Shown here in pieces: positions 1-55,753 of a stretch of DNA of 64,000 bases; positions within the stretch are counted from its first letter, which is position 1; each line of letters starts with the position of its first letter. The DNA is from Patescibacteria group bacterium (GTDB lineage: Bacteria > Patescibacteriota > Minisyncoccia > Phycocordibacterales > PALSA-1337). The position numbers were made by a program, and so were the translations under genes. The notes below the pieces were generated by a model. It was not told the DNA's origin, made no database searches, and saw only the letters and a list, made by a program, of their open reading frames with translations. The DNA lies in contig JBBTTD010000003.1 in the NCBI GenBank assembly GCA_038064415.1, positions 2,597 through 66,596 on the forward strand, read 5' to 3'.

Positions 1-78
1 TTTTACCACTCCAACTGTGTCAACTGACTTCGTCCAAAAGTCGCTTACTATCACCGTCCAAGTAACAACACTTTAGGC

Positions 79-765
79 GTGTTGCGGCCTTTTATGGGTC
101 TCATTCCGCTCGCACGATCAGCACGAATGGTGTTATACTTTTACAATATGAAACTGACACATGCGACTTCTTATACTATTTTGATTTCAATATTGTGCGT
201 GGCTGTATTTCTTTTTTCAACTGCCGCGGTCTTCGCGAAAGTTGGCGTTGGTATGGGAGCTGGTGAAATACGCCTTACCGAGTCTGTGAAGCCGGGCGGT
301 GTTTACGAACTTCCAAGTCTGCGGATTTTTAATACTGGCGATGAAGTTACCATATACGGTATGAATATCGCCTATCACCAAGACCGTCCCGAGTTGCGAC
401 CCGCGCAATCTTGGTTCTCATTTAACCCCGCCACATTCACTATTGAGCCGGGCAAAAGTCAGGAGGTCAAAGTTACCATGCTTGTTCCCGTTAAGGCAAA
501 GCCCGGAGATTATTTTGCATTTGTTGAAAGTGGTCCAGTCGCGAGTAATTCCCCTGGGACTTCAGTCGGAGTTGCTGTCGCCTCAAAGCTCTTTTTCACC
601 GCGGCGCCCGCAAATATATTTCAAGCGATAAGTTATCGCACCTCATCATTTTTAGCGGTATATTCACCCTGGTCATGGGTTGGGCTTGGACTTCTCGCTT
701 CCATTATTTTCATCATAGTCGTCAGGAAATTCTTCTCGTTTAATATTGCGGTTAGAAAAAACTAG
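79..765 (+). CDS. Hypothetical membrane/surface protein (N-terminal signal/TM, C-terminal TM anchor)
   Basis: ORF track; hydrophobic N-terminus and C-terminal TM segment (LGLLASIIFIIVV); no recognisable catalytic motif. Confidence 0.35.
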   Translation: MLRPFMGLIPLARSARMVLYFYNMKLTHATSYTILISILCVAVFLFSTAAVFAKVGVGMGAGEIRLTESVKPGGVYELPSLRIFNTGDEVTIYGMNIAYHQDRPELRPAQSWFSFNPATFTIEPGKSQEVKVTMLVPVKAKPGDYFAFVESGPVASNSPGTSVGVAVASKLFFTAAPANIFQAISYRTSSFLAVYSPWSWVGLGLLASIIFIIVVRKFFSFNIAVRKN

Positions 766-786
766 TCGCTTGTCAAAGAAAATCCT

Positions 787-1845
787 ATGCCCGGAGCCAT
801 CCCAAGAACAACTCCTTTATGGATTCTCGCTCTTATAGTTATTCTTGTACTGACCTATGCAGATACCAAGGCGCACGCGGCGACAATAACCGCAACGGTC
901 AAAATAACCGTCTGCGGTGATGGGATTGTTGAAACTCCAGAACAATGCGATAGTTCTAATCTTAATGGAGCTTCCTGTACGACGCGGGGTTTCACCGGCG
1001 GTTCTATCTCCTGCACGAACGCATGCGAGTTTAATACCTCGTCTTGTACTTTGAGTTCCGGTTCTTCAGGATCTTCCGGAAGTAGTGGCGGAGGCGGTGG
1101 AGGCAACGGTATCACCCCTGTTTCAACAAGTGCCGTCTTTAGCGGCAGGGCATATCCAGGAAGTGTGGTAACACTCCTCAAAGACGCGCAAATCGCCGCG
1201 ACAACCATTGCTGGGACTGACGCGAAGTTCCAAATCAACATTTCAAATCTTTCAGGCGGTAATTATATTTTCAGTGTCTATTCGGAGGACAAAAAAGGTC
1301 TACGCTCATCCCTACTTACATTTCCAGTATCCGTAACATCCGGCGCGACGACAAATATCAGCGGCATTTTCATCGCGCCGACAATCGCGACCGACAAAAG
1401 CGAGGTGCGACGCGGAGACAACATTGCTATCTTTGGGCAAAGCATTCCGTCGTCCGAAATCACGGTCAGCATCAATTCAGAGGAAGAGTTTTTTGTCAAA
1501 AGAACAACCGATGCGGCTGGCGCGTATCTTTTGAATTTTGATACATCCGTGCTTGAGATTGGACAACATCAGACCAAATCAAAATCAGCTTTAAGCGGCG
1601 AGATTACCGCATTCGGTAAAACAGTCGGGTTCGTGGTCGGGAATAAAAATGTGCTTGCCGAGCTAACGAAAGTTACCGCTACAAAAGGCGATACCAATGG
1701 CGATAATCGAGTCAACCTTGTTGATTTCTCCGTCGCTGCCTACTGGTACAAACGACTAAATCCTCCCGCGTCGGCCGACCTCAATAGCGACGGGAAAGTC
1801 AATTTGGTTGATTTCAGCATTATGGCGTTTAACTGGACCGGCTAA
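787..1845 (+). CDS. Secreted multidomain protein: signal peptide, Cys-rich repeat (CGDGxVExxEQCD...), Gly/Ser linker, Ig-like modules, C-terminal type-I dockerin
   Basis: C-terminal duplicated Ca-binding segments GDTNGDNRVNLVDFS ... DLNSDGKVNLVDFS are the canonical dockerin repeat pattern; N-terminal signal peptide; CGDG..EQCD cysteine repeat; SSGSSGSSGGGGGG linker. Confidence 0.6.
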   Translation: MPGAIPRTTPLWILALIVILVLTYADTKAHAATITATVKITVCGDGIVETPEQCDSSNLNGASCTTRGFTGGSISCTNACEFNTSSCTLSSGSSGSSGSSGGGGGGNGITPVSTSAVFSGRAYPGSVVTLLKDAQIAATTIAGTDAKFQINISNLSGGNYIFSVYSEDKKGLRSSLLTFPVSVTSGATTNISGIFIAPTIATDKSEVRRGDNIAIFGQSIPSSEITVSINSEEEFFVKRTTDAAGAYLLNFDTSVLEIGQHQTKSKSALSGEITAFGKTVGFVVGNKNVLAELTKVTATKGDTNGDNRVNLVDFSVAAYWYKRLNPPASADLNSDGKVNLVDFSIMAFNWTG

Positions 1846-1851
1846 CATATT

Positions 1852-2619
1852 ATGAACATATTTCTAAAAATAATTGCTGTCGCGTTGTTAGCATTTCCCG
1901 TAGCTGTTTCGGCTATGACAGTTGTTGTTGAAGTTGACACTGGGGAGGAAAGCATCAATGCGCTTGAGGCAACATTAATGTTGCCTGCAAATGCGGATAT
2001 ACATAATATTCAGAACGGCAACTCGGCCTTGCTTATGTGGGTTACTCCGCCCACACAAACGGACAACACGATCATCTTCGCGGGCATCACGCCTGGCGGA
2101 TTTGCCGGTGTCTATCCGATATTCACCATAGACGGTGAATTCGCGGCACAAGATTTGGAACAGATGAGATTTGATTCGGTTACCGCCCTTAGAGACGATG
2201 GCTCTGGTACTCGCGTACCAGTCAAGACGAAAGTCTCACTCATTCAGTCAAAAGGTGACACGATTCCGCCAGAAGACTTTACCCCGGTTATTTCACGCAA
2301 TCCGAGTATTTTTGACGGAAAATATTTCTTGGTGTTTGCCACGCAAGATAAGGGCTCTGGTATAAAGCGCTATGAAGTGCGCGAAGGACGATTCAACTGG
2401 TTTAGAAAAGAGGAAAGTCCATATCTCCTCTCATATCAGCGTCTCAACAAGGACATCTATGTGCGTGCGATAGATAACGCAGGTAACAAAAGAATTACTG
2501 TCATTGAGGCGACGACGCGCAGATCATGGTGGGAGCGTTACGGATTATTTGTTATACTTATAATGTTAGTTCTCGGGCTACTTGTATATAAAAGACAATG
2601 GCTAAAATTTATGCAATAG
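1852..2619 (+). CDS. Secreted, C-terminally TM-anchored protein with possible cohesin-like beta-sandwich module
   Basis: Signal peptide; region VVVEVDTGEESINALEATLMLP...IIFAGITPGGFAG resembles the cohesin pattern seen in the next gene; C-terminal TM (LFVILIMLVLGLLVY). Confidence 0.35.
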   Translation: MNIFLKIIAVALLAFPVAVSAMTVVVEVDTGEESINALEATLMLPANADIHNIQNGNSALLMWVTPPTQTDNTIIFAGITPGGFAGVYPIFTIDGEFAAQDLEQMRFDSVTALRDDGSGTRVPVKTKVSLIQSKGDTIPPEDFTPVISRNPSIFDGKYFLVFATQDKGSGIKRYEVREGRFNWFRKEESPYLLSYQRLNKDIYVRAIDNAGNKRITVIEATTRRSWWERYGLFVILIMLVLGLLVYKRQWLKFMQ

Positions 2620-4319
2620 TTTTTTTTCTCATCGTGTTCGCGACTGCGCCTGTTTTTGCGCATGCGGCATCGCTTAATTTTTCTCCACCCTCTGGTTCTC
2701 ATACTGTTGGGAGTTCGTTCTCGGTGAGCGTTTACGTGGAGAGCGCTAGCCAGGCGATGAATGCCGCTTCCGGCATCGTATCGTTTCCATGGGACAAGCT
2801 TGAGGTCGTGTCGCTCTCCAAGCAGGGCTCTATCTTCTCGCTTTGGCCCACAGAGCCGTCATTTTCAAATAGCCAAGGCACGGTTTCATTTGAGGGCATC
2901 GCTCTTAATCCCGGATATACTGGCACGAACGGAAAGTTGCTCACTATCACTTTTCGGGCGCGGAGCGCGGGAATGGCGAATGTGAGTTTCTCTTCTGGCT
3001 CTATTTTGGCGAATGACGGCACCGGCACGAATATACTGAACGGCCTTCGCGTTGCGAGCTATACGCTCGGAAGCACGAGCGTGCCGACTCCCACATTGCC
3101 ACAAGATGAGCCGGTTTCAACAGGGAACACGCTCGGCATCACATCCACCACGCATCCTGACCAGAGTGCTTGGTACGCAAACAATACGCCGGAATTTTCG
3201 TGGAACCTGCCCGATGGTGTGCTTGAAGTGCGAACACTCATCGGTAAATCGTCATCAGCAACACCATCGGTTTCCCACAACCCGCCGATCTCAAAAAAGA
3301 AAGTTGATGAGCTTCCCGACGGCACTTATCATTTCTCACTCCAAACACGCACGGTTTCTGGCTGGAGCACGGTATCACGTTATCGTGTCAACATTGACAC
3401 GACGCCACCCAAGCCATTCACAATCGCTTTTCCGCACGGGAATACCGGATGGGAGCCGCAACCAGTCGTGTTCTTTAACACAACGGATGACGAGTCTGGA
3501 ATAAGCCACTATGAAATCAAGGTTGGAAACGATATGAGACCATTCAAATCCGCGCCGTTTGCCACATCAAACCCCTATGTACTGCCACCGCAGCTTCCAG
3601 GCACATATACGCTCCTCGTTATGGCGGTGGACAACGCGGGCAATGTACGCAACGGCTCCGCGGGATTTACGATTGAGTCGATTGACGCGCCGACCATAAC
3701 ATACTATCCGGAAATGCTGGAGGAAGGCGATATTCTGAAAGTGAGAGGCACGACATATCCTGATTCTGATGTGACGATGTACATCCGTGAAGGCGACACA
3801 CTAGTGTCGGAGGAATATACGCGGAGCAACACGCTTGGCGACTTCGCTGTTGTCGCGACGAAATGGCTTAAGAACGGAGTATATACAATTACCGCGCGTA
3901 TTAAAGACGCGCGAGGGGCACAGAGTGTGGAGACATCGCCACTTACAGTTTCAGTCCGTTCAGAATTTGTCACGGAAATGGTGAGCTTCGTCCTGAAGTA
4001 TCTCTCTGTCGCGCTTCTCGCGCTTCTCGCGTTCGGGGTACTCGTGTGGGTAGGTCTTCGCTTGTGGTTTAGGATTCCCCGCACGATAGCGCGTATGCGT
4101 CGCGAAGCGCGAGAAGCGGAGAAAGTGTCTGAAAAGGCACTCAATGTTCTACGCGAAGATGTCCTGCGCCATATTGCCCGACTCAAGAAAGCGAAAAGAA
4201 GACTCACAGTGGAAGAAACAGAATTTTTGGAGCAGTTTGGTCAGAAGCTTAAGGAGGCGGAAGATATTATCATAAAAGAAATTCAAGATATTTCTAACGA
4301 TAAGACTGTTGGTAAGTAG
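2598..4319 (+). CDS. Membrane-anchored cohesin-domain scaffold protein (signal peptide, cohesin module, Ig/FN3-like modules, TM, cytoplasmic coiled-coil tail)
   Basis: Residues ~25-150 (SLNFSPPSGSHTVGSSFSVSVYVESASQAMNAASGIVSFPWDKLEVVSLSKQGSIFSLWPTEPSFSNSQGTVSFEGIALNPGYTGTNGKLLTITFRARSAGMANVSF) fit the cohesin fold signature; TM helix near C-terminus followed by Lys/Glu/Arg-rich coiled-coil. Confidence 0.55.
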   Translation: MAKIYAIVFFLIVFATAPVFAHAASLNFSPPSGSHTVGSSFSVSVYVESASQAMNAASGIVSFPWDKLEVVSLSKQGSIFSLWPTEPSFSNSQGTVSFEGIALNPGYTGTNGKLLTITFRARSAGMANVSFSSGSILANDGTGTNILNGLRVASYTLGSTSVPTPTLPQDEPVSTGNTLGITSTTHPDQSAWYANNTPEFSWNLPDGVLEVRTLIGKSSSATPSVSHNPPISKKKVDELPDGTYHFSLQTRTVSGWSTVSRYRVNIDTTPPKPFTIAFPHGNTGWEPQPVVFFNTTDDESGISHYEIKVGNDMRPFKSAPFATSNPYVLPPQLPGTYTLLVMAVDNAGNVRNGSAGFTIESIDAPTITYYPEMLEEGDILKVRGTTYPDSDVTMYIREGDTLVSEEYTRSNTLGDFAVVATKWLKNGVYTITARIKDARGAQSVETSPLTVSVRSEFVTEMVSFVLKYLSVALLALLAFGVLVWVGLRLWFRIPRTIARMRREAREAEKVSEKALNVLREDVLRHIARLKKAKRRLTVEETEFLEQFGQKLKEAEDIIIKEIQDISNDKTVGK

Positions 4320-4349
4320 CCCTTCGCAACCTGACTACCACCCTGTTTT

Positions 4350-5954
4350 ATGTTGTGTTATAATACGAAGATGAAATATAAAATAAATACAATGTTTCCA
4401 TATTTTATTATTTTTCTCTTTATTTTCACTCTTACCATTCCAATCCAGAATGCATCCGCCGGTTCGCTTACTCCTTCCTCCGCGCCAGCGGCCAATGGCT
4501 ATACTCTTTCTGGTATATACAATCGTCTAATAACGAATACCTCTGCCGTTTCTGGCTCTCATTCTTTTGCGCCTACCACTACCCCGCAGTCAACTTTCCC
4601 GACCTTGATTGATATTTATAATGCTATTCCAACAATATATCCAACTGATTTTTTGGCTAGCTCCACATATCTTGGTATTACTGGTTCAATTACGGTTAAA
4701 ACCGGCGATACCGTCGTCGCCTCAAGTTCTGCCCAAGGTACTTCGCTCGTCCTGACTGTTCCTCAAGGGTATTACAGTGGCGGGTCGTCAGTCACCGTCT
4801 CAACATCATCCGCAAGTTTTGTAGCTGGTAGTATTAAAAGCGGAGTTACGATTTTTGGCATTATCGGCACTCTTATTGAATCATTGGGCAATGCCGTTGT
4901 CGCCGATGTTTTCTCCGGTAAAACATTCAGCAATACCACAGATTCAAATATTACCGGTACTTTAAATCTTGCTTGCAATACCGCTACTTTCAACGGCACG
5001 GCAAATCTCGTCGCTACCGCATACGATGGCGCCGGCGATGGCTCAAATCGTTGGTGTGTTACTGATACTGGTGACGCGGTGGCCGGCGATCTTTTGTCTG
5101 GCAAAAAATCTTGGGTAGATGGCGTGGAAATTACCGGTTCAGTATCCGCCGGCTCCAATGTTACTGGCAGTAACGGCACGCTTGCCATGACGATTCCCGA
5201 TGGTTTGTATTCTGGTTCAAAAACAGCTACAGCCAACGATACCAATCTTGTGACCGGCAACATCAAAAGCGGAATCACGCTTTTTGGCGTTGCGGGCAAT
5301 TCCAATGTGGTTGATACTACTTCTGGTACGGCGGTAGCTGGCGATCTGGCCAACAATAAAATCGCCTTTTCCGCGGGCTCGCAGATTACCGGCACTATGT
5401 TTACCAACATGAAAAATCAGACAAAAGATGATTATGTGAATGGCGCGGGAACTACTGGAGAATATACAAGCGAAGAATCTACATGGTCGGCTGTTTCCGG
5501 CTCACCGTTCTCCGGATACGACGCCATTAATTATCTTGGAGCGACGGACTTGTATAGCGGCGCGGTCAAACAAGACGGAAGGACTGGTCTTTGGTGGTCG
5601 GATGTTATGGCTGTTGGCGCGACTGCTTCAACCACCACTAATGTTTTTACACTTTCAGCCGACGGCTCAAGACCAACTGGCGGTTTGGCTATCGGTTTTT
5701 GTGATGCTCTAAATAGTGCTAGTTTTGCTGGTTATACTGACTGGTATTTACCGACCCAGAAACAGCTCATGCAAGCATATATAGACGGTGCGTCAAATAA
5801 TTTATTGAATGCAGGATCAAATTCTTATTGGACATCCACAGAGGATTATAGTACAACGAATAATGCTTGGCGATCAGGTTTTAAATTTTCCGGCACTATT
5901 ATATCAAATACAAAGGTTACTACTACTGGCACTGTGCATTGCGTTCGTCCTTAA
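4350..5954 (+). CDS. Secreted Thr/Ser/Gly-rich fibre-like surface protein with C-terminal DUF1566/Fib_succ_major-like module
   Basis: Signal peptide; repetitive T/S/G-rich beta-rich sequence; C-terminal motif GYTDWYLPTQKQLMQAY...YWTST typical of DUF1566/Fibrobacter paralogous domain. Confidence 0.45.
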   Translation: MLCYNTKMKYKINTMFPYFIIFLFIFTLTIPIQNASAGSLTPSSAPAANGYTLSGIYNRLITNTSAVSGSHSFAPTTTPQSTFPTLIDIYNAIPTIYPTDFLASSTYLGITGSITVKTGDTVVASSSAQGTSLVLTVPQGYYSGGSSVTVSTSSASFVAGSIKSGVTIFGIIGTLIESLGNAVVADVFSGKTFSNTTDSNITGTLNLACNTATFNGTANLVATAYDGAGDGSNRWCVTDTGDAVAGDLLSGKKSWVDGVEITGSVSAGSNVTGSNGTLAMTIPDGLYSGSKTATANDTNLVTGNIKSGITLFGVAGNSNVVDTTSGTAVAGDLANNKIAFSAGSQITGTMFTNMKNQTKDDYVNGAGTTGEYTSEESTWSAVSGSPFSGYDAINYLGATDLYSGAVKQDGRTGLWWSDVMAVGATASTTTNVFTLSADGSRPTGGLAIGFCDALNSASFAGYTDWYLPTQKQLMQAYIDGASNNLLNAGSNSYWTSTEDYSTTNNAWRSGFKFSGTIISNTKVTTTGTVHCVRP

Positions 5955-5967
5955 GTGAGCGGATCTT

Positions 5968-7860
5968 ATGCAAAATATGTTCACAAAAAAATTTATTTCA
6001 GTAATATTGAATTTTGCGTGTATATCTGTATATCTTTTTTTGCTTGTTATTTTTAGCGCCAATTTTGTATATGCCTCAAGTACCGACGGTACCATAGACT
6101 CAACCAACCGCTACGCTTATATGGAAGCGGGAAGTTGGGTAGACTTGGGTAGCACGCAAGGCAATGTCCATGTTACCGATTCAGCGCTTTCGGGCTACGC
6201 GTGGAGTTCAGAATTTGGTTGGATTTCCTTGAATTGTTCAAATACCAGTTCATGTTCAAGTGGTGTTGATTATAAAGTCGCCAATGACAATGAAGGCGTC
6301 TTGTCTGGTTATTCATGGAGTGAGACGGCGGGTTGGATAGATTGGAAACCCACTAATGGCGGGGTAACGATTAATTCCTCCGGGATTTTCTCTGGAAGAG
6401 CGTGGGGAGATCAAGTTGGTTGGATCACTTTCAATTGTTCGGCGGATAGTTCTTGCGGGTCGGTTGATTATACAATTACGACTGATTGGCGACCATTGTC
6501 ATCTCGGTCCGTGGCCAGTCCGGTTACTGATTCAAGCACAGGATCCAATAGCAGTAGCGGCAGTAGGATGTTTTTACCGACGATTATTTCCATCCCAACG
6601 GAGATAGTTTCCAACATAATTGATGCTATTATTCCAGAATTTCTGAAGCCCAAAAAAGAACCAATCGTCAAAATTACCGATGAGATTCAGGTGTCAGATG
6701 TAACTCCGCTGGCTTTTAACGGAAAATGGAGACTATTGCCGATTCAGACTATAGGAGATTTCGTGTTCGCGCCTTTGCCACGGAGCATTCGTGCTTTGGC
6801 GGTAAAGTTTCCAAGTTTTGGTAAAACATTAAGTGAAGTTGGCGTTGTCCGTCTTTCTGATTTGGATAAATTGCGAAGCGCGACATTATCTTTGCCTGGA
6901 CTTACTGAAAGATCCGGTATTTCCGGAGCTTCATTGCGCACCGGTATATTCGCGTCTATGGCGGGAGTACCACTCGCAAAACTCTCTCCCTCTTTCAAAA
7001 AATCTTTACCTTCTGAAACGGTTTTTGCCAGGACGGCGGACGAGCTCATAGATCTGAATACTTCTATTCTGGTGAGCGATACTGGAGATGTCAATCAGAA
7101 AATCAATACTGAATCTAGGCAAACAATACGCCTAGCCATCAAACCGGAAAGTCCAGTGACATCCATCAAAGGATATTTGACTTTCCGAAAGAGGAATGCT
7201 TTGAGCAAAGAAGACGAATATTCAAATGACATGCTGGCTTCCGTCATATCCGCTTTGCCGGTGCTTGGGAAAAAATCAGACGCGCCGATAGAAGACAAAT
7301 TGGTTTTACTTTCATTTGATTACGGCGATTCTGACAAAGACGGTATCTGGACGGCGGATATAAATTCGCCGGTTGTGGCGGGAGAGTATGAGATTATGAC
7401 TATTATCGCTTATGTTGATCCCGAACTTGGTATGCGCCAAGTTAGACTTGTTACGGTGGTCGATCCGGAGGGATATGTTTATGAGAAGAACGGCTCAAAA
7501 GAGACTCGTATTCCAGATGCCGAGGTGTCTATATATGAGCTTAATAGCGATAGCGGTCAATATGAAATGTGGTCGGCCAGTACTTATCATCAAGAAAATC
7601 CTCAAACTACGGGCCTAAGTGGCACATATTCTTTCTTGGTACCACCGGGGACATATCGTATATTTGCCGTTGCTCCGGGTTATTCTCCATATGATGGCCA
7701 GCCATTTGAAGTTCAGATTGGAGGGGGAGTGCATAAGAACATTGAACTTATTCCAGAACATGGATGGATCAAAGCCCTGGATTGGAAGATTTTATTGATT
7801 ATCATAGTAGTGTTATTATTAGCTTACAATTTTTATCGCGATTATCGACGCGATAAGTAA
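5968..7860 (+). CDS. TM-anchored protein with N-terminal tandem 'GYAWSxxxGWIxF'-type repeats and C-terminal carboxypeptidase-regulatory-like (CarbopepD_reg) domain and terminal TM helix
   Basis: Repeats LSGYAWSSEFGWISLNCS / LSGYSWSETAGWIDWKPT / FSGRAWGDQVGWITFNCS; C-terminal SGTYSFLVPPGTYRIFAVAPGYSPYDGQPFEV; paralog of 44599..45459. Confidence 0.5.
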   Translation: MQNMFTKKFISVILNFACISVYLFLLVIFSANFVYASSTDGTIDSTNRYAYMEAGSWVDLGSTQGNVHVTDSALSGYAWSSEFGWISLNCSNTSSCSSGVDYKVANDNEGVLSGYSWSETAGWIDWKPTNGGVTINSSGIFSGRAWGDQVGWITFNCSADSSCGSVDYTITTDWRPLSSRSVASPVTDSSTGSNSSSGSRMFLPTIISIPTEIVSNIIDAIIPEFLKPKKEPIVKITDEIQVSDVTPLAFNGKWRLLPIQTIGDFVFAPLPRSIRALAVKFPSFGKTLSEVGVVRLSDLDKLRSATLSLPGLTERSGISGASLRTGIFASMAGVPLAKLSPSFKKSLPSETVFARTADELIDLNTSILVSDTGDVNQKINTESRQTIRLAIKPESPVTSIKGYLTFRKRNALSKEDEYSNDMLASVISALPVLGKKSDAPIEDKLVLLSFDYGDSDKDGIWTADINSPVVAGEYEIMTIIAYVDPELGMRQVRLVTVVDPEGYVYEKNGSKETRIPDAEVSIYELNSDSGQYEMWSASTYHQENPQTTGLSGTYSFLVPPGTYRIFAVAPGYSPYDGQPFEVQIGGGVHKNIELIPEHGWIKALDWKILLIIIVVLLLAYNFYRDYRRDK

Positions 7861-7881
7861 GATATAAATTTATAAATTATC

Positions 7882-8277
7882 ATGATTGATTTTCGCGCAA
7901 GCTCGATGAAGACGACAAACTGGATCAAAGTTATTTTGGCGATTGTGGTCGTATTCCTGGTCATATCCAATATCTTATTTATCTCAAAATATGTTTCAGC
8001 CAATAGACGAGCTGGACTTGCCGAAGCGATCGTCTCAAAAGAAGACTCCAAATCTAAGGTCCTTGATTTTGCCGGTTTTTTTATTGAAAAAGTTTTACAA
8101 GCCAAAGGAGAAATTAGTTTTGATGACAGGTTAATCATGGAAACCGCGGTTCGTGACCTCAAGGATTTGGAGATTGCGACGCAATGGAAGAAATTCGTGC
8201 AAAGCAGTGATGAGAGGGTAGTCCAGATTGAAGTGACCAATCTCTTAAAATTATTAGTGGATAAGGCGAGAAAATAG
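7882..8277 (+). CDS. Small membrane-anchored hypothetical protein
   Basis: ORF track; single N-terminal TM helix. Confidence 0.3.
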   Translation: MIDFRASSMKTTNWIKVILAIVVVFLVISNILFISKYVSANRRAGLAEAIVSKEDSKSKVLDFAGFFIEKVLQAKGEISFDDRLIMETAVRDLKDLEIATQWKKFVQSSDERVVQIEVTNLLKLLVDKARK

Positions 8278-8391
8278 AGAGCAAAATGATTCTCGTCTGA
8301 CCAATCCATCATAGCGTTTATTAGCACATCATTTATGGGACGATATTCTAAAACTGGTATAATTATTTCATTATCAACCTAATTAATTTTT

Positions 8392-8931
8392 ATGCGACAT
8401 CATACGATTGAAGTATCACCATTTTTTTATTTTCTTTTTAATGATAAGAAAATTTCCTGGTTTTGGATTATAATACGATTATATGTTGGTTATGAATGGC
8501 TTATTGCCGGTTGGTCAAAAGTTACGAGTGATGCTTGGGTTGGTTCTGGCGCTGGTTCCGCGCTTTTAGGTTTTCTCAATGGGGCGTTAGCCAAGACGGT
8601 TGGCGCGCACCCTGATGTTCAGGGGTGGTATGCTTACTTCTTGCAGAGCGCCGTTGTGACACATCCCGCTTTTTGGTCCAATTTGGTTGCTTGGGGGGAA
8701 TTGGCGGTTGGTATAGGTCTTATTATCGGTGCTTTTACGGGAATCGCGGCATTCTTCGGACTTTTTATGAACCTGAACTATTTACTTGCCGGTACCGTAA
8801 GTAGCAATCCAGTGTTGTTTACTCTTTCTATTGGTCTGGTTTTGGCGTGGAAGGTCGCGGGTTACATTGGCGCAGACAAATATCTCTTACCCAGGTTGGG
8901 TGTTCGTCCTGATAATGTTGTAGGGGGGTGA
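8392..8931 (+). CDS. DoxX-family membrane protein
   Basis: 4-TM protein, motif WIIIRLYVGYEWLIAGWSKV and overall DoxX-like organisation. Confidence 0.5.
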   Translation: MRHHTIEVSPFFYFLFNDKKISWFWIIIRLYVGYEWLIAGWSKVTSDAWVGSGAGSALLGFLNGALAKTVGAHPDVQGWYAYFLQSAVVTHPAFWSNLVAWGELAVGIGLIIGAFTGIAAFFGLFMNLNYLLAGTVSSNPVLFTLSIGLVLAWKVAGYIGADKYLLPRLGVRPDNVVGG

Positions 8932-55561: not shown

Positions 55562-55648
55562 TGGTGCCCGGGGTGGGAATCGAACCCACATGACCTTGCG
55601 GTCGACAAATTTTAAGTCTGTTGCGGCTACCAATTACGCCACCCGGGC
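55562..55648 (-). tRNA. tRNA-Leu (anticodon TAA), long variable arm
   Basis: Manual fold of reverse complement: acceptor GCCCGGG/CCCGGGC, anticodon loop CTTAAAA, long variable arm, T-arm GTGGG-TTCGATT-CCCAC, CCA encoded. Confidence 0.8.
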
Positions 55649-55677
55649 AATACTAGTCATTAATTACTAATAACTAG

Positions 55678-55753
55678 TGGGAGGCCACGGCGGGAATCGA
55701 ACCCGCGATAGCGGTTTTGCAGACCGCGGAATTACCACTTTTCTACGTGGCCC
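55678..55753 (-). tRNA. tRNA-Cys (anticodon GCA)
   Basis: Reverse complement folds with anticodon stem GCGGT/ACCGC, loop CTGCAAA, T-arm GCGGG-TTCGATT-CCCGC; exact end coordinates +/-2 nt. Confidence 0.7.

Follow-up and report, generated by a model that had tools for sequence, protein, structure and literature searches.

A candidate cohesin–dockerin pair of the cell envelope, encoded by a conserved gene cassette in Parcubacteria

Introduction

Three adjacent genes in a 64-kb window (i.e., the whole stretch of DNA that was analysed, 64,000 nucleotides) probably encode a dedicated, non-enzymatic cohesin–dockerin complex of the Parcubacteria cell envelope, a reading to which we give a probability of about 60%. 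Their products are a secreted protein that ends in a dockerin (352 aa), a short membrane-anchored protein with a truncated cohesin-like module (255 aa), and a long membrane-anchored protein with a cohesin at its N-terminus (573 aa). Judged by their sequences, these three genes and U1, the conserved gene upstream of them, belong to a non-enzymatic cassette of four or more genes that is syntenic throughout the lineage. From the same data we infer physical docking, its dependence on calcium, the choice of cohesin partner, and a constant role as an envelope or display scaffold rather than as a host-specific adhesin.

The window comes from a metagenome-assembled genome of a groundwater member of the Patescibacteria. 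The 573-aa protein is identical to NCBI entry MEK7609686.1, annotated as [quoted passage not shown], which bears out the CPR-like origin proposed in the earlier note on this DNA.

Organisation of the locus

Open reading frames coincide exactly with the three genes, all of which lie on the forward strand (Table 1). The dockerin gene is separated from the gene for the 255-aa protein by 6 nt, and overlaps of 22–28 nt between the two cohesin genes recur at other loci; thus, these two genes are probably translationally coupled. According to hydropathy, the dockerin protein has a signal peptide only, and the other three proteins of the cassette have C-terminal anchors. Scans for promoters and terminators in positions 1–8500 of the window revealed nothing that clearly exceeded shuffled expectation. 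Antisense open reading frames (e.g. 855–1241 and 3704–4207) were rejected as candidate genes, their apparent conservation being the shadow of the sense genes.

Table 1. Features of the cassette in the window (nucleotide positions; aa, residues of the protein named)
Feature	Position	Strand	Details
U1, conserved upstream gene	148..765	+	ORF 79–765; NCBI product of 205 aa corresponds to 148–765
Dockerin-bearing secreted protein, 352 aa	787..1845	+	Signal peptide 787–879; without membrane anchor
Cys-rich head of 352-aa protein	904..1056	+	aa 40–90; sub-threshold TIGR02232, DUF4215
Two Ig-like modules of 352-aa protein	1123..1656	+	aa 113–195 and 196–290; first is Big_6
Type-I-like dockerin of 352-aa protein	1678..1842	+	aa 298–352; Pfam, PDB, alignment
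Short membrane-anchored cohesin paralog, 255 aa	1852..2619	+	Profile comparison, hydropathy
Signal peptide of 255-aa protein	1852..1914	+	
Truncated cohesin-like module of 255-aa protein	1915..2244	+	
Ig-like/FN3-like module of 255-aa protein	2272..2517	+	
C-terminal TM segment of 255-aa protein	2527..2604	+	
Long membrane-anchored cohesin protein, 573 aa	2598..4319	+	Start overlaps the 255-aa gene by 22 nt
Cohesin module of 573-aa protein	2670..3077	+	aa 25–160; Pfam, AlphaFold2, Foldseek
Three Ig-like stalk modules of 573-aa protein	3135..3962	+	aa 180–268, 269–362, 363–455
TM helix and charged cytoplasmic tail of 573-aa protein	3990..4316	+	TM ~aa 465–490, tail aa 493–573; hydropathy, charge

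The dockerin protein

The earlier note had placed a duplicated dockerin segment at the end of the first gene and a cohesin at the N-terminus of the third, and had proposed a search with the corresponding Pfam models; both modules score above the curated cut-offs. For the dockerin, the match to Dockerin_1 (PF00404) covers aa 300–346 with 27.6 bits (cut-off 22.9), and the top sequence match of the protein in the PDB is also a dockerin (2y3n_B, E 0.002). In the module, a unit of about 22 residues, an EF-hand-like loop followed by a helix, occurs twice in tandem. The two 12-residue calcium loops, DTNGDNRVNLVD and DLNSDGKVNLVD, both have D or N at positions 1, 3, 5, 9 and 12; the repeats have the core VNLVDFS in common, and the protein terminates in an invariant WTG. 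In an alignment of 36 sequences, D302, D306, N310, D313, N333, D335 and D342 are invariant, and the contact helices are nearly invariant and internally symmetric. Most members of the dockerin-protein family carry a precomputed match to PF00404. A regular expression for the paired loops, applied to the 64-kb window translated in all six frames, found no open reading frame besides that of the 352-aa protein and, in 1.2 Mb of related loci, no match beyond the dockerin-protein family; thus, the loop pair exceeds what is expected by chance.

At the other end of the protein is a Cys-rich head, in which aa 42–60 give the sub-threshold matches listed in Table 1 and six Cys residues (C43, C54, C64, C76, C80 and C87) are invariant in the family. 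A Cys-rich segment ahead of the dockerin had been noticed before and is present, although as a single N-terminal six-Cys unit and not as a repeat array. In certain lineages, FN3 or CarboxypepD_reg modules replace this head. Big_6 matches the first of the two Ig-like modules with 28.1 bits (cut-off 27.6).

Cohesin and dockerin modules are together the hallmark of the cellulosome, and Bell et al. interpreted such domains in a Microgenomates metagenome genome (Shapirobacterales) as a minimal cellulosome, in which cohesins recruit dockerin-tagged enzymes that degrade polysaccharides. For the present locus, such a function is highly improbable. Neither the sole dockerin protein nor any of its lineage variants was found to carry an enzyme or a carbohydrate-binding module; the loop searches in the window and in the related loci returned no second dockerin; each anchor bears a single cohesin and no carbohydrate-binding module; and there was no glycoside hydrolase among the ten large open reading frames of the window that were scanned. 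Neither several dockerin-bearing enzymes nor a multi-cohesin scaffoldin with a carbohydrate-binding module was found in the window or the related loci, so that the description “cellulosome-style”, which had been given to this gene pair, is not supported in the functional sense. Of this genome, the searches covered the 64 kb of the window, and further dockerins may be encoded elsewhere in it.

The two cohesin proteins

Pfam Cohesin (PF00963) matches aa 32–140 of the 573-aa protein with 26.7 bits (cut-off 24.1). The AlphaFold2 model of aa 1–180 has a pLDDT of 91.7 and shows the cohesin fold, a nine-stranded β jelly-roll of about 140 residues that superposes on cohesins of solved structure; when it was compared with the PDB by Foldseek, the top 35 matches were all cohesins, with E values down to 3e-8 and TM scores, normalised to the target, of 0.47–0.80. 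Between this cohesin and the membrane is a stalk of three Ig-like modules, on which the earlier note was silent: Big_13 matches aa 363–455 with 45 bits, and the module at aa 269–362 is OmpL47-like and common to the 255-aa protein. The anchor and charged tail that had been read from the letters are both present; the 80 residues after the TM segment include 20 K/R and 16 D/E, and in the family this tail has a mean pairwise identity of 53%, with many residues near-invariant.

A second cohesin-like module had been suggested for the gene in the middle. A cohesin-like module is there, in truncated form: profile comparison identifies it as a paralog of the long cohesin (hhalign E 1.2e-37), and in the window it is without the first strand or strands of the fold, so that it may be a non-binding module; an ortholog of the middle protein, P0183, is full-length at 290 aa. 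The positions conserved in both cohesins are N55-A56, S78, W83, P87, F98, G100, G106 and N139-D140-G141-x-G143. They fall in the presumed strands 3, 5 and 6 and in the loop after strand 8, an arrangement compatible with the canonical dockerin-binding face, the placement on the 8-3-6-5 face being by strand order and not by coordinates. At one locus (L068), the two cohesin genes are joined in a single reading frame. This was rejected as evidence that the two act together, since the product keeps the TM segment of the middle protein followed by the signal peptide of the second, which indicates read-through or an assembly error rather than a clean fusion.

Conservation of the cassette

Within the Parcubacteria group, the dockerin protein is encoded in at least 540 of the species-level genomes of GTDB. 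Among the 80 loci fetched, essentially all of those whose flanks were long enough have the dockerin, short cohesin and long cohesin genes in this order on one strand. There is one dockerin at each of 83 loci, with two cohesin open reading frames at 68 loci, three at 7 and one at 6; the window itself is of the common kind, with exactly one dockerin and two cohesins. In one complete chromosome (L063), the genes for the dockerin and middle proteins are both present, but the 10 kb that were fetched downstream contain no long cohesin gene. The earlier note, made from the letters of one locus, did not recognise that the genes belong to a cassette of four or more whose order is kept throughout the lineage.

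Cohesin and dockerin folds could also be present without binding one another, each binding, for example, glycan, peptidoglycan or an S-layer, and be neighbours through participation in a common envelope process. Dockerin-like modules for which no cohesin partner is known have reportedly been found outside cellulosomes, the middle cohesin is truncated, and both Pfam scores are a few bits over their cut-offs. Docking here is itself deduced, and a covariation analysis of the dockerin and cohesin columns (APC-corrected mutual information, 73 paired loci) was uninformative, the top pairs probably being phylogenetic noise, because the dockerin helices hardly vary. Against these points stand the strict adjacency and fixed order in the 80 loci fetched from the at least 540 matching species, with a single dockerin in each; the invariance of calcium-loop residues and of contact positions in the helices; the sharing of one set of conserved positions by the two cohesin paralogs; and the fact that cohesins bind dockerins in every solved system among the fold matches. 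Thus weighed, two folds that ignore each other are an improbable account of the cassette, and the capture of the neighbouring dockerin protein by an anchored cohesin, as the earlier note envisaged, is the best reading of the data.

Upstream genes and the question of host attachment

U1 begins with a signal peptide, followed by a single Ig-like domain, and is anchored by a TM segment at its C-terminus (nt 664–753, by hydropathy). Its family, of WxLIP-like anchored Ig proteins, is the usual 5′ neighbour in the cassette, lying immediately upstream of the dockerin gene at 72–74 of 83 loci. The top PDB match of the family profile is EfmWxLIP1 (9i25_C), a weak match with an E value of 0.017, and 16 of 37 members have sub-threshold matches to WxLIP_PGBD (PF06030; best E 1.6e-4). 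The U1 of the window is a one-domain short form of this family, with generic Ig-like matches only and no match to PF06030 in Pfam.

The logic of the operon has a parallel in the WxL/WxLIP (DUF916-DUF3324) clusters of Firmicutes, in which the genes for a small and a large secreted protein with a common C-terminal domain precede that for a protein with a pair of Ig-like domains and a TM helix at its C-terminus. These clusters have neither cohesin nor dockerin. The small upstream proteins of the Parcubacteria loci carry a nearly invariant W-x-L. The identification of the far-upstream genes as WxL genes was rejected, as the profiles of their small and large proteins (A5 and A6, weakly linked to each other with an hhalign probability of 44%) had no WxL match in Pfam or the PDB; their relation to WxL proteins is one of analogy. 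U1 is the only one of the upstream genes compared with WxL clusters that lies inside the window.

Variable upstream genes encode lectin-like surface proteins with Laminin_G_3 or BNR domains. Such proteins would suit host attachment, i.e., a cohesin stalk that shows the dockerin protein as an adhesin to the surface of a host cell. So would the surface location indicated by hydropathy, the exchange of the Cys-rich head for FN3 or CarboxypepD_reg, the presence of the cassette in an archaeal parasite, Ca. Microsyncoccus archaeolyticus (L057), and the essentiality of a dockerin-domain protein in a Saccharibacterium, albeit one that does not belong to the cassette. Adhesins that track different hosts normally diverge fast, whereas the head and the Ig modules of the dockerin protein have mean pairwise identities of 62% and 70–72%, respectively, over many candidate phyla, and the folded modules across the cassette families are all 55–72% identical. 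Moreover, the dockerin protein is at least as conserved as a few housekeeping genes of the same loci (median identity to the window copy 56% versus 42–52%), and it is the upstream genes that vary, not the cassette. Episymbiotic adhesion therefore fits this very high and uniform conservation of all modules poorly, and we regard it as unlikely, though as the least unlikely of the alternatives.

Comparison with known systems

One close likeness is to OlpA and OlpC of Clostridium thermocellum (PDB 3ul4 and 4dh2), in which one cell-bound cohesin captures a type I dockerin directly on the surface of the cell; among the Foldseek matches of the cohesin of the 573-aa protein, 4dh2_C ranks first. In these two proteins, SLH repeats provide the anchor, and the enzymes that are recruited come from a pool of about 70 dockerin proteins. 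Here, the anchor is a C-terminal TM helix with a conserved cytoplasmic tail, and the putative ligand is one dedicated protein, non-enzymatic and encoded in the same cassette. Non-cellulosomal modules are also known from the cohesin of Archaeoglobus fulgidus (2xdh) and the glycoside hydrolase and toxin complexes of Clostridium perfringens (2vo8, 2w1n and 2jh2). There, the modules belong to enzymes or to soluble proteins and are dispersed through the genome, unlike the fixed, lineage-wide cassette with two anchored cohesin paralogs described here.

Among CPR bacteria, the Saccharibacterium Southlakia epibionticum has an essential envelope protein with a dockerin domain, SEML1_0315 (Wang et al. 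2023, PMC10633639). It resembles the 352-aa protein in being a dockerin-annotated envelope protein of a CPR bacterium, and it has an experimental fitness phenotype. It differs in its length of 927 aa and in its gene, which is monocistronic, has a tRNA and the gene of a hydrolase as neighbours and adjoins no cohesin gene; orthology was rejected on length, architecture and gene neighbourhood.

In the literature, no paper describing the cassette was found, only annotation-level mentions from other CPR lineages. To that extent, the statement that such a system is not characterised for this lineage stands; it needs the correction that the modules already have names at NCBI, where the cohesin module of the 573-aa protein is named and relatives of the 352-aa protein are dockerin-repeat proteins.

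Proposed mechanism

The proposal of a dedicated envelope complex can be put as follows. The 352-aa protein would be exported, with no anchor of its own, and its C-terminal dockerin would most likely dock in a calcium-dependent manner on the cohesin with which the 573-aa protein begins. This long protein is predicted to be a three-Ig stalk held in the membrane by its C-terminal helix, with the cohesin at the outer tip. The paralogous cohesin of the anchored 255-aa protein may be a second partner of the dockerin, or the partner in place of the first. With the WxLIP-like U1, the three genes form a fixed four-gene core behind the variable genes for lectin-like surface proteins, and the outcome would be a fixed envelope complex of a secreted protein on one or more membrane cohesins.

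A bolder version, which we consider speculative, is a near-universal, lineage-defining envelope machine of Parcubacteria, in which the almost invariant, symmetric dockerin would join the secreted protein to both of the membrane cohesins, made in stoichiometric amounts, and the conserved cytoplasmic coiled-coil tail of the long cohesin would couple the external assembly to an intracellular partner. If true, coupling through the tail may serve signalling, the cytoskeleton or division, and the whole would be a transmembrane cohesin–dockerin device of a kind not previously described.

Significance

The cassette cautions against taking annotations of cohesins and dockerins in CPR genomes as evidence for cellulose degradation. 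A labelled dockerin or cohesin could possibly serve as a lineage-wide probe for staining Parcubacteria cells in samples or for capturing them, and the cassette may provide a new orthogonal cohesin–dockerin pair for protein engineering. Patescibacteria account for much of the diversity of bacteria. For the study of how they build their envelopes and make contact with other cells, a candidate docking pair that is syntenic, single-copy at each locus and nearly invariant over many candidate phyla offers a concrete, testable hypothesis.

Organization of the Cassette

Genes of the cassette at the start of the window
Gene	Position (nt)	Strand	Description
U1 (upstream gene)	79/148-765	+	ORF, first of four tightly packed genes
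Dockerin protein gene	787-1845	+	ORF, 352 aa
Middle protein (short cohesin) gene	1852-2619	+	ORF
Long cohesin gene	2598-4319	+	ORF, 573 aa

The gap between U1 and the dockerin gene is 21 nt and that between the dockerin and middle genes is 6 nt, whereas the middle and long cohesin genes overlap by 22 nt, such that the final 22 nt of the middle gene (2598-2619) double as the codons for the start of the long cohesin (MAKIYAI). Overlaps of 22-28 nt between these two genes are seen again in many loci, and in one related locus (L068) the stop codon at this junction has been lost, resulting in a single ORF of 866 aa in which the second signal peptide is retained as well as the transmembrane segment. 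The two overlapping cohesin paralogs are probably translationally coupled.

The GC content of the cassette is 0.45-0.51 (genes in window 1-6000), compared with about 0.40-0.43 in the remaining window, and its GC3 is 0.44-0.54, compared with 0.33-0.41 in the genes for DnaE, LepA, IF-2, MurJ, RNR and iPGM. The high GC content could be due to lateral replacement from a higher-GC relative, e.g., one of the Kaiserbacteria, or to expression-linked codon bias.

The Dockerin Protein

The dockerin proposed by the earlier note is present: the C-terminus of the protein matches Dockerin_1 with 27.6 bits (Pfam cut-off 22.9) and has two canonical calcium loops, DTNGDNRVNLVD and DLNSDGKVNLVD. By sequence, its closest solved relative is the dockerin 2y3n_B. 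Positions 8-14 of repeats 1 and 2 (VNLVDFS) are near-invariant and mutually symmetric, which is the pattern of dual-binding-mode type I dockerins. From the N-terminus, the protein comprises a signal peptide, which is its sole hydrophobic segment by hydropathy, a unit with six cysteines (sub-threshold matches to TIGR02232 and DUF4215), a Gly/Ser linker and two Ig-like modules, the first of which matches Big_6 (28.1 bits, cut-off 27.6). The domain scan found no catalytic or carbohydrate-binding module. In lineage variants, the Cys-rich head is replaced by FN3 or CarboxypepD_reg repeats, and never by an enzyme. The six-frame translation of the window contained no second ORF with the paired-loop dockerin pattern, and 1.2 Mb of related loci contained none beyond the dockerin protein family.

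The Cohesin Proteins

The anchored cohesin that had been suspected next to the dockerin protein is borne out by sequence and by predicted structure. The long cohesin scores 26.7 bits against Pfam Cohesin (cut-off 24.1). An AlphaFold2 model of residues 1-180, built with 47 homologs, has a pLDDT of 91.7, and the 35 top-ranking PDB structures in a Foldseek comparison are without exception cohesins, both type I cellulosomal modules and non-cellulosomal modules of C. perfringens and A. fulgidus. The cohesin module is followed by three Ig-like modules (Big_13, 45 bits; one OmpL47-like), a transmembrane helix and a charged tail of 80 residues. The long cohesin is identical to MEK7609686.1, from Hainich groundwater contigs, which is named by NCBI as [quoted passage not shown]

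The middle protein appears to carry the second cohesin-like module that had been thought possible; in the clade of the window the module lacks about 20-35 of the N-terminal residues of its 290-aa orthologs; a C-terminal helix serves as anchor, as judged by hydropathy. The positions conserved in both paralogs lie in presumed strands 3, 5 and 6 and the loop that follows strand 8. Mapped by strand order only, they are compatible with the canonical dockerin-binding face.

Distribution, Synteny and Conservation

Each of the three proteins belongs to a large family with a single architecture. The dockerin protein has more than 2,100 homologs (among the best 120 listed, identity is 57-76% and length mostly about 345 aa). 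When GTDB species were scanned, each through one genome, at least 540 were found to encode it; the matches listed include Kaiser-, Nomura-, Wolfe-, Zambryski-, Campbell-, Magasanik-, Komeili-, Veblen-, Jorgensen-, Portnoy- and Torokbacteria and Ca. Microsyncoccus archaeolyticus. Kaiser- and Magasanikbacteria, the two named phyla checked, fall within NCBI's Parcubacteria group. The long cohesin has more than 600 homologs (the best 120 listed are 50-79% identical; full-length ones have about 560-600 aa), and the middle protein has 287.

Family HMM searches of 80 fetched loci and three others placed the dockerin, middle and cohesin genes in this order and on the same strand in every case where the contig was long enough. 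Each locus has a single dockerin ORF; 68 loci have two cohesin ORFs, 7 have three and 6 have one. The U1 family lies directly upstream of the dockerin gene in 72-74 of the 83 loci. In one complete chromosome (OY970181.1, 5007-13821), U1 is absent and a protein of 1,662 aa is encoded directly before the dockerin gene; the long cohesin gene was not found in the 10 kb fetched downstream, where there are instead two genes whose translations read like ABC-transporter ATPase/permease fusions. Thus, the short cohesin may be sufficient in some lineages.

Within each family, identity is 55-72% for every folded module, the Ig domains of the stalk and the cytoplasmic tail among them; drift is confined to signal peptides and linkers, and conservation of the dockerin protein at least equals that of the few housekeeping genes common to the same loci. 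This uniformity suggests that the proteins form a multi-protein assembly under tight constraint, whose partner is constant and would more likely belong to the cell's own envelope than be a host-specific ligand.

Surrounding Genes

The best PDB match of the U1 family profile is the WxL-interacting protein of E. faecium (E 0.017), with which U1 shares its layout of Ig-like domains and a C-terminal anchor, and 16 of 37 family members have weak WxLIP_PGBD matches. Farther upstream, beyond the window, there are two alternative sets of paired genes with a common C-terminal domain, some large members having ConA-like or BNR heads. Together with U1, these pairs parallel the layout of Firmicute WxL clusters; sequence profiles did not support a WxL domain in the pairs. 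Four source contigs (L005-L008) all break off upstream of the window, about 2.6 kb from its position 1 and about 5.2 kb from the cohesin gene, just before a gene for 616 aa, and distant relatives have a giant gene (more than 2,200-2,700 aa) in the corresponding region. This suggests that the region upstream of the cassette is repeat-rich or strain-variable and breaks assemblies.

Downstream, 4350-5954 encodes a secreted protein of 534 aa with a C-terminal Lcl_C domain (PF07603), called at 518 to 532 aa across otherwise near-identical contigs; other lineages do not conserve it next to the cassette. The 630-aa protein of 5968-7860 has repeated SGYAWS..GWI motifs near its N-terminus, a CarboxypepD_reg domain that scores below threshold, and a hydrophobic segment at its C-terminus; the dockerin protein of one Kaiserbacteria genome has this same kind of CarboxypepD_reg module where others have the Cys-rich head. 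The 891-aa protein of 41919-44594 has a Peptidase_S74 domain (endosialidase intramolecular chaperone) near its C-terminus, a domain typical of phage tail-fibre-like or self-cleaving fibre proteins. RNA genes at 37721-38061, 46058-46131 and 55562-55753 indicate an ordinary chromosomal context; those of the window are bacterial RNase P RNA class A (116 bits), tRNA-Gly(CCC), tRNA-Leu(UAA) and tRNA-Cys(GCA).

Function and Relation to Known Systems

Hydropathy indicates C-terminal anchors in U1, the middle protein and the long cohesin, but no anchor in the dockerin protein. We infer that the dockerin protein docks on the anchored cohesin, and likewise the calcium dependence of docking and the choice of partner. 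The earlier note had read the genes as a cellulosome-style assembly; this is supported in part, as a non-cellulosomal cohesin–dockerin pair, whereas a cellulosome is not supported. A dedicated docking pair fits the evidence better, because the sole dockerin protein is without catalytic or carbohydrate-binding modules, its variants exchange the head for other non-enzymatic repeats, and each anchor protein has one cohesin.

In mechanism, the cassette comes nearest to two single-cohesin surface anchors of C. thermocellum, OlpA and OlpC (4dh2 is the top fold match); the non-cellulosomal modules from A. fulgidus and C. perfringens are near to it as well. The cassette differs from all of these in four respects: its transmembrane anchor is joined to a conserved cytoplasmic tail, it has two cohesin paralogs whose genes overlap, its one ligand is dedicated and non-enzymatic, and its synteny is lineage-wide.

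For the candidate phyla radiation, the searchable literature mentions cohesin and dockerin at annotation level only, and no paper in it joined either with Parcubacteria terms. A Shapirobacterales genome has been interpreted as cellulosomal, and a dockerin-domain protein has been reported to be essential in a Saccharibacterium (PMC10633639); size and gene neighbourhood rule out the latter as this cassette. In NCBI records, the cohesin module of the long cohesin is already named, and relatives of the 352-aa protein are entered as dockerin-repeat proteins; that the genes form a conserved core cassette of Parcubacteria seems not to have been described. While it involves no new principle, the cassette is testable and useful for the biology of the candidate phyla radiation.
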